Assembly: GCF_030013205.1 (NCBI RefSeq)
Contig: NZ_CP122648.1
Origin: Escherichia coli
Lineage (GTDB): Bacteria > Pseudomonadota > Gammaproteobacteria > Enterobacterales > Enterobacteriaceae
DNA length: 64,000 nucleotides
Reading direction: 5' to 3' (one strand)
Position numbers: made by a program. Every line of letters starts with the position of its first letter. The first letter of the stretch is position 1. Shown piece by piece: positions 9,001-27,000 of the stretch.

Positions 9001-12000
9001 TTGTTAAGGCACTTAGCGGGTTTGTTGGTTTTGCGGTTGAACATCCCTGGCTTTTTGGGGCCGCAGTACTTGCTGGACCATCGAGAGTTGGTGCTGTGGC
9101 AGCCACAACGACCGGAGTTGCCGCCCGTGTTGTTGGTGGAAGTCTTCTTGGGGCTACAGCCGGAACAGTAGCTGGATTGGCTATTCCTACAAATGACACA
9201 CCTACCACCAGTGAGGAAATGAAAGGGCTGGAGGGGCGTTTCAACTTTGATTATTTTAACGAAGTGCAGGAGTGGCAAAAAAACAATCCGGGTAAGGTCT
9301 GGCCTGGAGGATTGCAGGGATTTTCAAATCAAGTAAACAGATCTGCATATTTATCCAGAGGGATCAGGAATAACAATCCCGGAAATCTTAATTTCGCAGG
9401 ACAAAAAGGGGCTACCCTGGAATCGGGGCCAAATGCCCGTTTTGCCAGCTTCCCGACGATGCTGGAAGGCATTGCCGCCTTAGATCGGCAGGTAATGCTA
9501 TACCTGAAACGCGGCAAAAATACGATTGATCAGATTATTGATATTTATGCCCCTTCATCTGATGGAAATAACACATCGTCCTATAAAAGCTATCTCTCTC
9601 AGTACACCGGATTAGGTGTTAAGGAGAAAATCGATGGTTCTAATTTTGAGGTCATGAAAAAGCTAATTCAGGGCATTATTAACCATGAAAATGGTGCTGC
9701 CGCTAAAGCTGTAAGTGTTGAAGATGTGATCCGGGCGCTGGCTATGAATCGTGGGATTGTCCCTGCAGCAGGAAACAATGATCAGAACGTTAAGTTGGAA
9801 ATTGTTCGGAACGCTGGTGCCGATTACTTCGCGCAACTAATTGGTGCTCAACGGTTCCTGGGATGATTTAAATACACGCGCTTTCCGGCGCATTAATACA
9901 GTCTGAGGGGAAGTGTCATGTTTATGAGCAAGGCAGAATATGCCAAACACAAAGGCGTAAGCCGCCAGACAGTTTACGACTGGATCGAGAAAGGCGAAGT
10001 GATCATGTCTGGCAAAAAAATTGATGTGGAAGCGACAGAGCAGCGGAACAGCCCACCAGCACAGGGAAAAGATACCGTTTCTGAAATGTGGCCAGAGAGA
10101 ACGCTGGAAATGACGTGGGGCGAGTTCTGGAAAGCAGTTAAGGCCAGAGACGGTAAAATCCCTGCACCAGTAACGGACAATGACATACAGCAGCGTGTAC
10201 AGGATGCAGCCGGGGAACTATGCTGTGAAGTGCAATTTCTTGATGATGGTGCTATCTGCCTTGAGGATTATGCTGGGCAATATTACTTTGAGCAGTATGA
10301 TTTTCGGGAAAATGCCAGGCTGGCAATTCGTATGCTGCGTTGTGAGCTCTGCTATGTTGCAGGTGATTGTCCCGATGAGCTGGATAACTGGAGTGAAGCC
10401 GGACTAAACGCCCTGGCTGAGTGGGAAAAATCAGGCCATCAATGACCTCAAAAAGTGTCAAGTTGAGCAGCTTGCCAGGTTGACACTTTACACTCTGAAC
10501 GCGAAAAAGTGTCAACCTCGCTGTAAGCCCCGCCATTACTGGCCTTTCGCCAGATTTACCACGTCAAAAAGCCGAAAAAATCGCGAAAAGTGTCAAGTTG
10601 CCATGCTTAGAAATGCTAAGGTTTGATAAGGTTTTTCGCGAAAAAGTGTCAAGTGTGTCAACCTGCGATGTTAAGATTTGTTAAGGTCTTAAGCCGGAAA
10701 GTGTCAACCAGCCCCCTAAGATTTCCTAAGGTGTAAACCATGACCATCACCGAAGCCGATTTGCTGGAGATGATCCGCAGCATTGCCGGAATCAAACAAC
10801 CAGCAAGCAAAATTAACAGGTGTTCAGCGCCTGTTTCCGTTGTGCTGCAGCAGGAACGCCACCAGCATGATGATGTGAGGCCGTATCAGTGGCGGAAACC
10901 GGACAGGCCGCGACGGTGAGCGGAACGTTCGGTAAGGCTACAGCCAAGCCAAACATTAAGCCTACGGGTAACCCTTCGAAGGGGCTTTAAAGGGGAGATG
11001 ATTATCCTTACCAGTTGATAAACAAGCAAACCTCAAATTTGAGGTTTGTATCTGCCTGACTTATTTTTGTGCTAAGTTGTTGATATATCCGACGACACAA
11101 ATTTGCGTTCTGTGGCTGGTGGTGGCGAGTTACGACCGATCATTTCCTTCCTGGCAGGTTACATCCTGCTGCTCAACTACTACGGTAGCCACTACGATTA
11201 ACTACGCGATGCCGATATGGGGATTCCCATATCGGTTTATCCGTGATCATCCACCAGCTTGATCACGGTTAACAGGGGATGTGTAATCCCCAAGCGAGTG
11301 ATAAATGTGTATAGAAATGTGTATAGAATTTATTTTAGAACTCGCGAATGCGCCTTTATTACTGGCCTTGTGGCTTGTTGTATTGTTCCCTTCGCCCGCT
11401 CCAGAATCTCCCCAGGTGGAGAAGACTAAAAAAGTCTTCTCTGTCAGCAACTTAAACAGTTACCTATTTAATTTGCTTAGGAGTTCTACCATTGTGATCC
11501 GCCCTTAGTAACTGTCACGTTAAGTTACTCGGTGAGATGACAGTATAACCTAACGTTGGCGGCAGTTGCACCTCTCACACCGCGATAGCACAACGTGAAG
11601 ATAAAGCCCATCCTGGCATTGTAATGTCATCGACAGACTGAACACACGCATTTAAGCCCGATGTGCGGCCTTGTGGCTGCGTAAACAGGTTTATGGTGAT
11701 ATTGGTCCTTGCAAACCATATGCAAGCTCTATCAGCGTTTCAGCCACGCTCCCAACGGGTACACGGTTATCCTGATAAGGTGTGATCTTTCTGACAATCT
11801 GATGAAGTCGCTACGCTCCCGCTTGTTGCTGTATCACCAACGGGGCTTTATGGTTTCTATTGTCTATAATAATCTCACAATTCCCCTGCATGAGGTTGAT
11901 ATGACTGTTAGCTACAAGATTACTTATGAGCATAGAGACGGTGATCAAATTAGAATGGAAGAGGTTTTATTCCATTCAGAGCATGAACCAACAAAAGATG

Positions 12001-24000: not shown

Positions 24001-27000
24001 TAATCATCACTGTGGGGCGGTTTAGCCCCCTTAAATAAGGATTACAAATTATGGCAATGGGTCCGTTAACCATTGGTCGCCCGACTGAGGCGAAAATCAA
24101 CAGCACAAGCAACGATAGCAACGGTAGAACAACCAAAGGGGGTAACGGCTTTGCGATCATTACCTCTAATCTCGGCAGTGGTGCAAATGCTGCTTACAAT
24201 GACTACCAGGCATTATCATTTGATAGCGTGGAATCGACGAAAGTTAGCAGAAATGCGGACGTTACAAGCTATGCCGTCGAATCAGGATCAGAAGTTAGTG
24301 ATCATGTTCAAATACGGAATAACAAGTTCACATTACAAGGGCGTATCTCTGAAACCGTATTGAAGCTCAATCCCGATATGATTAAGAATGCGGGAATTAA
24401 CGGCAATCGACGTATGCTTATGCTTGAATACCTAAATCAGTTGATGGACAGTCGCCAACCTTTCCTACTTGTCACTGAGTTAAAAAATTATGACAACGTT
24501 GTGTTAGTTGGCATGTCTTACGAAGAAGAAGCAAGCGAAAGCCTATTGTTTACTCTTGATTTTGAGCAAATCCGTCTTGTCTCTAAAGCAACTACAAGCG
24601 CAATTGCGGTAAAAACAGCACCAAATAAATCTGTAGGAGGTCAGGTTAAAATGCAGGTAAATACAACAGAACAGAAAAATCAAAAAAGCCCAGGGCAAGA
24701 CGTTGTAACGCCAGTATTTAAACAATAGCCTTAAACACCTATGAAACGCTCTATAACGAGATAATCATAAAAGAGGCATCAATCTATATTGAAGCCTCTT
24801 TATTACGTCTATGGCGTTGTTTTACGCCTTAAAATCAATATTTAATTCATATCTTACTAATTCTACATATTCAGCTAATTCTGGAATGCTTGCCCCTTGT
24901 GAGTAGGTGCGAAAGGCTTCTGTTTTGGCTTTTTGCTCAGTGTGGCCCGTAATACTGCCGATCCTGGTCTCGCTAACTCCGGCACGATCAAGACAAGTGA
25001 TAAACATCCCGCGCAAGCTGTGAAAGCATTGTCTATCTGTAGCGATTGGCAAGACGCTACGACGTAAACGTGAGAATGCTTGAGAATAGAACGGGCCTTT
25101 CTTGCCGTCGATTCTTTTTACTTTGTTCGAGTGAGGGAACAAATATTCACCATAATTATGATTTAAATATTCATCGACAATAATCGATAGTCTCGAATGT
25201 ATCGGAACGTGTCTGATCCCTGCTTTAGTCTTACTCTTGCTGATATAAAAACAGCGTATTCCTTCCACAGTTACAACCTCTGACTTTTTCAGGCTTGCCA
25301 GTTCGTCTAATCTGCATCCTGAAAACAAGCCCATTAAAATAATATTTCTGATCTCCGGCTCCGCTGCATCAAGTAGCTTTTGCATTTGTTCAGGTGTAAA
25401 CGGTTGATAACTCTCGATTGTGCGACGTGCTTCGAGGTTATGACCGTGAAAAGGGTTACTGTCTGGTATTCCGTCATAACGGCGTTTAGCAAATTCATAG
25501 AGCGATCCTAAGCATGTAAGCCAGTTTTGACGAGATTGATCGGCTGCTCCTCGTTGCTTCTGGTCATCTAAGAATACTGTTACAAGCCGTCTGCCTATTT
25601 TCTCAATATGAATATCATCTTTCTGAATGCTTTGTAAAAATAGCTCAACGGCCCTTGCTGATTTCTGTAGTGTTGAGTATGAACGACGCTCTCTGTAGCA
25701 TTCGGCGTATTCGTCACGTATTAAGCATAGGGAAGGCGATGCATAACCGCGTTTTACGGCTCTTTGCGTGTTTTTATTGGCCCTTGCCTCTGAATGTAAG
25801 AATTCAATAGCTTTTTGTAACCTCCTTTCGGGGTTATCAGGATTATGTTTCCGCTTTAGTTCCTCCCATTCTAATAACAGATGGTTTCTGAATCTTCTCG
25901 CCTCATTCAGATCTCGTGTAGATGTGCTTTTTCTCCACAACTTGTAAGGGTAAAGATGGCGTAAGTATTTAGGAACAAAAATCTGAAACATCCAGATCCC
26001 ATCTTTTCTCTTAAATAAGTATGCTTGGCTCTTGATCGACACGATAATGATCCTCTATTATCACGTAATCAGTTACCTATGATTGATCACAAAATCTTTA
26101 TTTTACAGCAGGTTATTATGGGTTTCCTCGATTCCCTTCGCCCGCTCCAATTTATCTTCACCTCATCAACCTGCCATTTTTGTTGTATCTGATTTTCTAT
26201 ATTATCTTAATTCAATCGCTTCAGACTTTTCGCAATCGCCGTAATACTTCCCCATTTTTTTGTAAATAAAAGCGTTTACGCAATGCAATCCATTTGTAAC
26301 AACCCAGGTAAAATACCTTATTTTCAAGTTGTTAAATAAGTGGTTATCTACGCTTTTAACAAACGATTGATGGAATCTTTTATGAAAGGGAAATCTACAT
26401 TAACTCTTCTGCTCGCTGGTATATTTTCATGCGGCACATGCCAGGCGACAGGGGCAGAAGTGACGAGTGAATCTGTATTTAACATTCTTAATTCCACGGG
26501 GGCAGCAACTGATAAAAGTTATTTATCGTTAAATCCAGATAAGTATCCTAATTATCGTCTTCTGATTCACTCAGCCAAATTAAAAAATGAAATAAAGAGC
26601 CACTATACCAAAGACGAAATTCAAGGATTGTTAACATTAACAGAAAATACACGAAAGTTAACGTTGACGGAGAAACCCTGGGGAACATTTATTCTTGCTT
26701 CTACTTTCGAAGATGACAAAACAGCGGCAGAAACCCACTATGATGCTGTCTGGCTGAGGGATAGTTTATGGGGCTATATGGCATTAGTATCAGATCAAGG
26801 AAATAGTGTAGCCGCAAAAAAGGTTCTGCTCACTCTGTGGGATTATATGTCTACGCCCGACCAGATTAAGCGGATGCAGGACGTCATTAGCAACCCAAAA
26901 CGACTGGATGGTATTCCTGGGCAAATGAATGCTGTGCATATCCGATTTGACAGCAACTCCCCCGTGATGGCAGATGTGCAGGAAGAAGGCAAGCCGCAGC

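Follow-up and report, generated by a model that had tools for sequence, protein, structure and literature searches.

Locus and overall organization

The 64,000-nucleotide stretch of Escherichia coli DNA analyzed here (contig NZ_CP122648.1 of RefSeq assembly GCF_030013205.1; hereafter, the window) carries at positions 11404-26149 a discrete insertion of 14.7 kb, or 13.4 kb without an IS2 copy, which combines an integrase and a plasmid-like replication region with a small set of phage virion genes. Over its whole length, the window shows 100% identity to chromosomal DNA of the porcine E. coli strain ETEC4079. An initial annotation of the window had placed the block between two direct copies of the glyU 3' end and had described it as AT-rich, and both statements hold: an 18-nucleotide (nt) direct repeat (TTCCCTTCGCCCGCTCCA), identical to the 3' end of tRNA-Gly(CCC), is present in exact copies at 11386-11403 and 26132-26149, and the measured GC content of the element is 0.33-0.45. 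The position given for glyU itself was wrong. Both repeats are 3' fragments, and neither ARAGORN nor Rfam detects an intact tRNA anywhere in the window; the intact glyU sits 2.85 kb upstream of the window start, with a P4-like satellite between it and the element.

The order of the locus is actS, glyU, P4-like satellite, repeat, element, repeat, GH15, GhoT, and the genes of ETT2 (E. coli type III secretion system 2), and the element is the second unit of a tandem glyU/P4-like satellite/element/ETT2 array. A synthetic empty junction, in which glyU is joined to position 26150 onwards, is found as one contiguous, 100% identical piece in many genomes and is covered to at least 80% in 3389 genomes. 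Because the junction from glyU to the right flank is contiguous in these other genomes, the array represents a precise insertion at the tRNA 3' end. The element contains approximately 18 open reading frames (ORFs), and its features are listed in Table 1.

Table 1. Features of the element, with positions in the window (aa, amino acids)
Feature	Position	Strand	Remarks
attL core, left attachment repeat	11386..11403	+	18-nt glyU 3'-end copy; doubles as right end of the upstream P4-like satellite
Left arm, variant-specific cargo	11404..13113	.	Three ORFs
85-aa ORF, left arm	11850-12107	+	
YecR-family lipoprotein, left arm	12141-12461	-	Pfam YecR 2e-23
55-aa ORF, left arm	12606-12773	-	
Small serine recombinase, resolvase/invertase type, 183 aa	13114..13665	-	Resolvase 6e-39; PHROG DNA invertase 5e-62
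Noncoding origin and control region, 1.7 kb	13666..15357	.	Between the recombinase gene and the first operon
Iteron-like array	14157-14325		At least 6 GTAACGA-N-GTTACA units
AT tract	~14330-14420		Immediately after the iteron-like array
Long inverted repeats	14430-14731		
Near-consensus extended -10 promoter	15207-15235		For the small-ORF operon
60-aa ORF	15358..15540	+	Conserved across genera; dN/dS 0.05
55-aa ORF	15562..15729	+	Conserved in E. coli and Klebsiella
Rep-like helix-turn-helix protein, 226 aa, candidate initiator	15783..16463	+	PHROG, HTH_36
Four small ORFs (89, 127, 76, and 102 aa)	16473..17815	+	dN/dS 0-0.5
127-aa ORF (one of the four)	16839-17222	+	Basic N terminus; conserved across genera
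Noncoding leader before the capsid/tail operon, ~1 kb	17816..18807	+	
Promoter-like site in leader	17828-17857		
Three long hairpins in leader	18556-18779		Last is terminator-like and ends ~28 nt before the ATG
69-aa ORF opening the capsid cassette	18808..19017	+	Positional counterparts of ~66-74 aa in all enterobacterial members
124-aa ORF, probable capsid cement/decoration protein	19017..19391	+	Directly upstream of the major capsid gene, like phAPEC8 gp115 and phi92 gp123
Major capsid protein, Phage_cap_E/HK97 fold, 342 aa	19408..20436	+	Pfam 1e-17; PHROG_29 3e-15
65-aa ORF between capsid and tape-measure genes	20591..20788	+	ORF of 62-67 aa at the equal position in all members
Tape measure protein	20823..22646	+	PHROG tape measure 1e-26; 613 aa when intact, 607 aa here
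IS2 insertion, 1331 bp	22631..23961	+	Clean; 5-bp CTATT target duplication; secondary event
Tail tube initiator, Dit-like, 225 aa	24051..24728	+	Pfam Dit_like 1e-27
Tyrosine integrase, 406 aa, DUF6538 type, glyU specific	24822..26042	-	Phage_integrase and DUF6538 domains; intact; abuts the right repeat
attR core, right attachment repeat	26132..26149	+	18-nt glyU 3'-end copy

Capsid and tail-core genes

The capsid and tape-measure genes proposed in the initial annotation were both borne out. The major capsid protein, described there as gpE type, matches phi92 gp124 among the PDB sequences (E value, 1e-8) in addition to the families given in Table 1 and is 25% identical to phAPEC8 gp114 over its full length. 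The tape measure protein matches phAPEC8 gp104 (4e-22; 24% identity), and the two proteins have their termini in common: the N-terminal motif MLExNxSxIxNVVTFxVD and the C-terminal motif LTLxxxSGQSxxGG occur in all lineages of the element as well as in the phage protein. The gene that follows, which had been recorded as a single post-tape-measure gene, is present as described and can now be identified as that of the tail tube initiator, a component of the baseplate core. Its product matches phi92 gp135 in the PDB (7e-54), as well as other chains deposited as tube initiators, and is 53% identical to phAPEC8 gp103, with residual similarity at the nucleotide level.

The 124-aa ORF is probably a capsid cement or decoration protein, as its position and size suggest. 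It is conserved together with the major capsid protein across genera, the hhalign comparison with phage decoration proteins gave P = 0.005 over 99 collinear columns, and decoration proteins occupy the top ranks of Foldseek searches of BFVD and the PDB, at nonsignificant scores and with an AlphaFold2 model of pLDDT 60. BLAST, Pfam, and a profile search against PDB sequences returned nothing for this ORF, and the gpD-like label first attached to it is best treated as tentative. The 69-aa ORF lacks the gp116 N-terminal motif seen in distant members of the family (see below), and the 65-aa ORF has no family match. The cassette formed by the 69-aa, 124-aa, and capsid genes (18808-20436) is exchanged as a module among E. 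coli copies: in comparison with copies L022 and L023 (8074-9940), its flanks (the leader and the tape-measure and tube-initiator genes) are 90-95% identical, whereas blastn cannot align the cassette itself.

In no lineage did an ORF match a portal, terminase, protease, tube, sheath, hub, or lysis family, no repressor (CI/Cro) family was found in the ORFs of the element, and none of the 10 element proteins scanned with PADLOC matched a defense system. The absences noted initially (terminase, portal, protease, tail tube, lysis, and CI/Cro-like genes) thus stand, with one correction: the absence of any baseplate gene was not strictly right, because the gene after the tape-measure gene encodes the baseplate-core tube initiator. 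The description of the IS2 copy as a clean insertion near the end of the tape-measure gene was also accurate, but the insertion is not harmless, in that it replaces the last 11 codons of the 613-aa protein and thereby removes the conserved LTLxxxSGQSxxGG motif. IS2 is absent from 11 otherwise identical sister genomes.

Relationship of the virion genes to virulent myoviruses

In a tblastn search of the element proteins against 50,697 phage records, the best matches of the capsid, tape measure, and tube initiator were virulent myoviruses of the Stephanstirmvirinae and Vequintavirinae with genomes of approximately 136-150 kb (phAPEC8, phi92, rV5, phiTE, and relatives). The tape measure of the Klebsiella member of the family is 40-42% identical to Phapecoctavirus tape measures (E value, ~1e-85), so that identities of the tape measures to this phage group range from 24 to 42%. 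In phi92, gp123 is a trimeric β-tulip cement protein that is encoded just upstream of the gene of the T=13 capsid protein gp124, gp134 is a trimeric tape measure with its C terminus in the baseplate core, and gp135 is the hexameric tube initiator (PMC13450770). The element retains two adjacent gene pairs of these phages in the phage order, i.e., cement-capsid and tape measure-tube initiator, and the approximately 10 genes that lie between the pairs in the phages are missing. These phages have large virulent genomes and T=13 heads; an integrase and an origin of plasmid type set the element apart from them. None of its remaining ORFs had a homologue in the 126 of 148 kb of phAPEC8 that were compared.

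The Pantoea-type member (L027/L028, 8065-9638) has no tube initiator. It carries a homologue of gp112, which is 39% identical to the phAPEC8 protein and falls in the Pfam class of the phiTE-type portal adaptor, and a 121-aa protein that matches residues 1-72 of gp116 at 54% identity; the motif EESLGxHIAxTFDFQGGAASGYNTPLLFKS is near-identical between this protein and the phage gp116 N terminus. With an adaptor and a gp116 fragment in place of the tube initiator in the Pantoea-type lineage, the lineages differ in the selection of parts that they have from one phage group. In sequence identity, the parts that must touch phage components are the ones closest to the phage.

On balance, we favor the view that these elements are a new family of satellites that would exploit rV5/phAPEC8/phi92/phiTE-like virulent myoviruses with a shell and a tail core of their own. 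The prominence of interface proteins (the tube initiator at 53%, the tape measure at 40%, the adaptor at 39%, and the gp116 N-terminal fragment at 54% identity) also agrees with an anti-phage interference island, the phage-like proteins of which would act as decoy or poison subunits that cause rV5-like heads and tails to misassemble, while the island itself would not be packaged and would spread otherwise. The variation of the phage-like gene set among lineages is what counter-adaptation predicts, the tRNA hotspots are those of P4-like satellites, and known satellites also hamper their helpers. The element proteins, however, have no match to a PADLOC family, and a full-length capsid protein together with a cement protein, conserved from E. 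coli to the Pantoea-type member (30-73% identity) and with a capsid only approximately 25% identical to that of the phage, is rather what would be expected of a working shell. Moreover, an integrase and a replicon without conjugation or mobilization genes imply that some vehicle is needed. We consider interference without packaging unlikely as the whole explanation; it overlaps with the satellite reading, and the two are not mutually exclusive.

Distribution, attachment sites, and selection

The block belongs to a widespread and as yet undescribed family of integrative elements of Enterobacterales, approximately 12-14 kb in length. Of 5426 complete E. coli genomes, 619 have matches to its core DNA, and about three quarters of the matches span several kilobases; 731 of the 732 matching places are chromosomal, and 1 is on a plasmid. 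Carriers include enterotoxigenic, avian pathogenic, extraintestinal pathogenic, and O104:H4 E. coli, in addition to Klebsiella. The common gene plan consists of a small recombinase gene, a long noncoding region, a small-ORF operon with a Rep-like gene, a noncoding gap, the late genes, and the integrase gene, and the late genes are arranged as an ORF of ~70 aa, an ORF of ~120 aa, the major capsid gene, an ORF of ~65 aa, the tape-measure gene (580-630 aa), and a lineage-specific extra gene. This plan recurs in E. coli, Klebsiella, Serratia, Pantoea-type genomes, and metagenomic contigs, at four or more attachment (att) sites with matching integrases, and the synteny holds at 30-73% capsid identity across genera.

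Recurrence as a discrete unit, which the initial annotation had proposed as a check, is seen at glyU, thrW, a LysR-family gene, and other sites, with a different integrase and clean repeats in each case. In the thrW copies, which are found in many E. coli strains, the core begins directly after thrW, and 28-nt thrW repeats lie 12.4 kb apart in strain 74-2. A variant with 73% capsid identity splits a LysR-family gene and has a 52-nt repeat on each side; removal of its sequence restores an ORF of 298 aa. The K. pneumoniae member (56% capsid identity) lies directly after tRNA-Gly(CCC), with a copy of the window's 18-mer on either side. More distant members from Serratia (39% capsid identity), Pantoea-type genomes (34%), and metagenomic contigs (30%) occupy other sites. 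In L029 and L030, a 19-nt repeat flanks an element that has the integrase at the opposite end and the tape-measure gene upstream of the capsid genes. Overall, the integrase type tracks the insertion site (glyU, thrW, the LysR-family gene, and others). Exhaustive profile searching revealed a continuum of capsid relatives with E values from 1e-94 to 1e-20, and both of the intermediates that could be placed are in small elements, not in phages; a single-protein scan of a genome collection returned Pantoea anthophila only.

Contigs that might have been circular or excised forms are accounted for otherwise: that of L012, which comprises exactly one repeat period, by the 52-nt att repeat, and those of L029 and L030 by integration, with an att repeat at either end.

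In comparisons with independent copies, the ratio of nonsynonymous to synonymous substitution rates (dN/dS) of four genes lies within 0.03-0.27 (0.03 for the serine recombinase, 0.07-0.14 for the capsid, 0.25 for the tape measure, and 0.05-0.08 for the tube initiator), and the genes are under purifying selection. A tRNA hotspot among other islands, an IS2 copy, and phage-like genes are also what a decayed remnant of an ordinary full-size prophage that had kept a few structural genes would present. Decay would be recognized by idiosyncratic gene loss, pseudogenes, relaxed selection, restriction to one lineage or site, and a collinear full-length phage. What is seen is one gene set in one order with intact ORFs at four or more unrelated att sites in four or more genera, with the dN/dS values given above. 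No known prophage or phage is collinear with the block, and the only phage relatives are the virulent myoviruses of about 150 kb at 24-53% identity. Since a plan common to several genera and sites and maintained by selection cannot be produced by independent prophage decay, we give this explanation hardly any credence. The Sakai prophage Sp1/CP-933H, which had been considered as a possible thrW element, is an unrelated lambda-like remnant. Our searches of the literature turned up no account of an element like this one, or of a satellite that depends on phages of the rV5/phAPEC8/phi92 group.

Recombinases and candidate replication module

As annotated initially, an intact tyrosine integrase lies at one end of the element. 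The Klebsiella member, likewise inserted at glyU, has an integrase with 80% identity to it; the integrase of the thrW copies, located at the same end of the unit, has 33%. The serine recombinase proposed for the other end is also present; the res-like site assigned to it could not be confirmed. In the Klebsiella, Serratia, and Pantoea-type members, its position is taken by a tyrosine recombinase of approximately 185-205 aa. A small site-specific recombinase thus always adjoins the replicon region, with a recombinase family that differs by lineage (serine in E. coli and tyrosine elsewhere), and its retention next to the replicon despite the change of family suggests a conserved role, e.g., multimer resolution, which we prefer to inversion. 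An invertible promoter switch operated by the recombinase through the 30-nt inverted repeats at 14454-14731 was considered and is not supported, as no inversion was found among approximately 10 copies.

The region described initially as origin-like, with iterons, an AT tract, and a candidate initiator, is a candidate autonomous replication module; the ribbon-helix-helix protein reported beside it was not confirmed, since the 55-aa ORF at 15562..15729 has no Pfam or PHROG match. The matches of the Rep-like protein are weak (PHROG replication initiation, 4e-6; PHROG O-like, 2e-4; HTH_36, 1.5e-4, which is below the Pfam cutoff). Copies with the Rep of the window (97% identity) have six GTAACGA units, the copy with a 58% identical Rep has six CTAACGA units, and the L011 and Klebsiella copies, in which tblastn finds no match to the window's Rep, have their own motifs in 8-9 copies. 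This joint change of the iteron motif and the Rep-like variant is the signature of a cognate initiator-iteron pair, and the Rep-like protein is a candidate initiator that would bind the iterons. Within the control region, positions 14932-15357 contain a repeated AAGCC-N4-GGCGAGCTAAACG motif and are 83% identical to the distant L011 copy, the capsid coding sequence of which is only 71% identical.

This candidate module brings to mind an integrative plasmid-like element that has domesticated phage genes, for example, to form a compartment of the encapsulin kind or a protein that is secreted or acts on membranes, and that requires no helper. The Rep-iteron origin, the resolvase-type recombinase, and the integrase resemble those of plasmids or integrative and conjugative elements; encapsulins are HK97-fold shells without a portal; and the tape measure is annotated as "flotillin family" in some genomes. 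This reading is nevertheless quite unlikely in view of the single plasmid location among the 732 matching places and of the capsid, which is of the phage Phage_cap_E type and stands in phage gene order beside a cement-like gene. In addition, both ends of the tape measure are conserved between element and phage, the C terminus lies in the baseplate core in phi92 (PMC13450770), and a tube initiator or a portal adaptor is meaningful only in a tailed virion.

The remaining small ORFs gave no assignment. The 60-aa ORF has no family match, and its identity is 60-63% in L011 and Klebsiella and 31-38% in L017/L018. The four small ORFs at 16473..17815 likewise have no family match, and searches of the small ORFs against PADLOC, NCBIfam, and Pfam at lenient thresholds returned nothing. 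For the 127-aa ORF, considered as a possible small terminase subunit (TerS), the AlphaFold2 model (pLDDT 59; pTM 0.31) was too poor for a fold search. The approximately 10 ORFs without an assignable function, together with lysogeny-type integration and an origin of its own, leave room for a minimal temperate virus, or its defective relic, with packaging and tail genes among these ORFs or elsewhere in the genome. None of the unassigned ORFs is nevertheless large enough, at 127 and 102 aa for the two longest, to encode a portal, large terminase, sheath, or hub, the same limited gene set recurs in every lineage, and no companion cluster lies next to the copies examined; a virus of this kind, minimal or defective, is very improbable.

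The left arm is present in approximately 99 genomes with the glyU variant, and the thrW copies carry other DNA at this position. A patch of approximately 66 nt just past the recombinase gene (13040-13106), found in the glyU variant only, resembles noncoding DNA of phAPEC8 at approximately 6685-6750 (37 nt at 92% identity).

Leader of the late operon

The capsid/tail operon is preceded by a highly structured leader. The last 270 nt before the operon fold with a z-score of -9.5 relative to shuffled sequences, and a terminator-like hairpin with a GC stem and a U run is located shortly before the late operon in every lineage, with leader z-scores of -9.1, -7.8, -5.8, -4.3, -2.7, and -2.6. Eleven of 12 control windows lie between -2 and +0.5, and the twelfth (at 21000) is at -3.4. 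Rfam gave no match at gathering thresholds over the whole window and one chance-level match in noncoding regions. The leader stays 90% conserved where the capsid cassette is swapped. As only approximately 28 nt separate the last hairpin from the ATG, the operon probably needs read-through from the promoter-like site at 17828-17857, and we infer that an antitermination-type switch at the leader hairpin may control the late genes.

Comparison with known satellites

Membership in satellite families was judged by the published SatelliteFinder definitions (PMC10085698). By these definitions, the element does not belong to the P4-like satellites, the phage-inducible chromosomal islands (PICIs), the capsid-forming PICIs (cf-PICIs), or the PICI-like elements (PLEs), which agrees with the initial assessment that its gene set matches no known satellite family. 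The cf-PICI model requires 9-11 of 11 core components, and tail genes are forbidden markers in both the PICI and cf-PICI models (PMC10085698). The element does have a capsid of its own (Phage_cap_E, 1e-17), but the protein belongs to a different capsid lineage from that of the cf-PICIs. A portal, head-tail adaptor or connector, terminases, protease, AlpA, and primase-replicase are absent from the element in the window, an adaptor being found in one distant lineage only, and the tape measure and tube initiator violate the exclusion of tail genes. Among the PICI components (int, alpA, pri-rep, ppi/rpp, and terS) and the P4-like components (int, psu, delta, sid, alpA, epsilon, and alpha), the element has the integrase alone; no family match to TerS, primase, or AlpA was found. 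With respect to the PLEs, the integrase is a tyrosine recombinase, the only serine recombinase is the 183-aa resolvase-type protein, no PLE homologues were found, and the hosts are Enterobacterales. The element does present two general properties of a satellite: it is a discrete mobile unit with integration functions and clean att sites, and it lacks essential virion genes.

The element would work most like a combination of a cf-PICI, with its own capsid, and a PLE, with a virulent myovirus as helper and an initiator of its own, although it has the genes of neither. The cf-PICIs, which are common in E. coli, are likewise chromosomal islands of approximately 10-15 kb with an integrase, their own replication, and their own HK97-fold capsid, and depend on helper parts. 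They differ in that they have a full head module (portal, protease, adaptor, connector, terminases, and HNH) and no tail genes (PMC10085698), whereas the element has the capsid and a probable cement protein only, together with tail-core genes, and its capsid is of the Phage_cap_E type and is related to those of virulent myoviruses. P4-like satellites are integrative replicons of approximately 11 kb at tRNA genes in Enterobacteriaceae and often stand in tandem with the element. They alter helper capsid assembly through Sid and Psu to package a small genome; thus, P4 reshapes the capsid protein of its helper, whereas the element encodes its own, and P4 helpers are temperate P2-like phages.

The PLE of Vibrio cholerae, similar to what is proposed here, is an integrated island with its own initiator and origin that depends on a strictly virulent myovirus, ICP1; it makes small capsids and relies on helper packaging and tails. 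On the other hand, it is confined to Vibrio, uses a large serine integrase and a RepA_N-type initiator, and remodels the ICP1 coat with the scaffold TcaP. It has no homologue of the capsid, tape measure, or tube initiator and no sequence relationship to the element. In broad structural lineage, the capsids of ICP1 and of the candidate helpers agree (PMC12846349). MulchRoom and MiniFlayer of Streptomyces are satellites that have their own encapsidation genes and lack other essential functions (PMC10690885). Their hosts and genes are unrelated to those of the element, they have no replication genes, MiniFlayer lacks integration, and a tape measure has not been reported for either.

Proposed mode of action

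The idea of a satellite-like element put forward in the initial annotation gains support from the discrete recurring unit, the incomplete virion set, the purifying selection, and the lack of fit to any known family; the status of satellite itself we infer from gene content. A more specific proposal, which we advance tentatively and with rather less assurance than the satellite reading as such, is that the virions of these satellites would be chimeric, with a shell, a tape measure, and, where encoded, a tube initiator of their own and with the portal, motor, tube, sheath, and baseplate periphery taken from the helper. Upon infection by a suitable myovirus, the element would excise and replicate as a circle from its own origin, with multimers being resolved by the small recombinase. 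Read-through of the leader terminator would then turn on the late operon, and the capsid and cement proteins would form, on the helper portal, a small shell for approximately 12-13 kb that the helper terminase would fill. Tails would be assembled on the helper baseplate hub around the tape measure and tube initiator of the element, with the tube, sheath, and fibers of the helper, which would probably lose part of its yield.

Several points weigh against this proposal. The matches to viral contigs (IMG/VR) are provirus predictions from genomes, not particles, and the short contigs that look circular are integrated copies or ambiguous. The capsid is only approximately 25% identical to those of the candidate helpers and is not accompanied by a portal, a scaffold or protease, or a small terminase, no pac or cos site was identified in the element, and it is hard to see how the shell would nucleate on a foreign portal and be packaged. 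By comparison, portal and terminase subunits are encoded by the cf-PICIs themselves, along with the capsid (PMC10085698). The candidate helpers are strictly virulent. Ordinary sigma70-like promoters serve their structural genes, as seen in phAPEC8, so that looking for a helper-specific late-promoter motif ahead of the late operon of the element was uninformative. To our knowledge, no satellite carries a tape measure, and the role proposed for it is without precedent. The true helper could be an unsampled phage. For the copy in the window in particular, transmission may be impossible, because IS2 has removed the conserved C terminus of the tape measure.

If chimeric virions of this kind are made, the element would be without a known forerunner both as a satellite that provides parts of the tail core and as an E. 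coli satellite of strictly lytic phages. The satellite reading, if correct, would add a fifth major type to the satellites of E. coli, the best-studied bacterium. Satellites would then be able to substitute for the tail core and not just for the head shell, and large virulent coliphages would have parasites dedicated to them in the chromosomes of their hosts. Current satellite detectors exclude the element by design because it carries tail genes. Phages of the phAPEC8, phi92, and rV5 types have been proposed for phage therapy and biocontrol. As about one in ten complete E. coli genomes carries the element, and Klebsiella does as well, it could affect phage efficacy, host range, and gene transfer in such treatments. 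The element would also provide a compact natural system for the nucleation of a foreign capsid on a helper portal and for the mutual recognition of tape measure, tube initiator, and hub. Even if helper dependence should fail, it represents an abundant, conserved, and unannotated family of mobile elements with an unexplained gene set.

Neighboring islands

Elements of this type and P4-like satellites use common hotspots. A second island with an integrase usually comes in tandem after the thrW copies. In L004 (18808-24110), it is a P4-like element with Psu and Ogr/Delta; in L022 (14324-16867), it has a gene for an RNA-directed DNA polymerase (reverse transcriptase); and in L023 (O104:H4; 14576-17098), it is a P4-like satellite of the type seen in the window. 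The P4-like satellite that forms the first unit of the glyU array occupies positions 1-11403 of the window, with its integrase gene upstream of the window, and includes genes for Icd-like, DNA primase, AntA/AntB, ProQ/FinO, PerC, and NUDIX proteins. Its cargo end, which encodes DUF2213, 205-aa, 679-aa, and 175-aa proteins without a Pfam or PADLOC assignment, is possibly an uncharacterized defense or cargo hotspot. Upstream of the window, xdhA (xanthine dehydrogenase subunit; L019, 5543-7834) is annotated with an internal stop. To the right of the element (26340-64000; seen in L001 at 26967-38746), a GH15 glycoside hydrolase gene and a GhoT/OrtT-family toxin gene are followed by the ETT2 island, several genes of which, including those of SpaN/EivJ and YscQ/HrcQ, are frameshifted; ETT2 is therefore degenerate in this strain.

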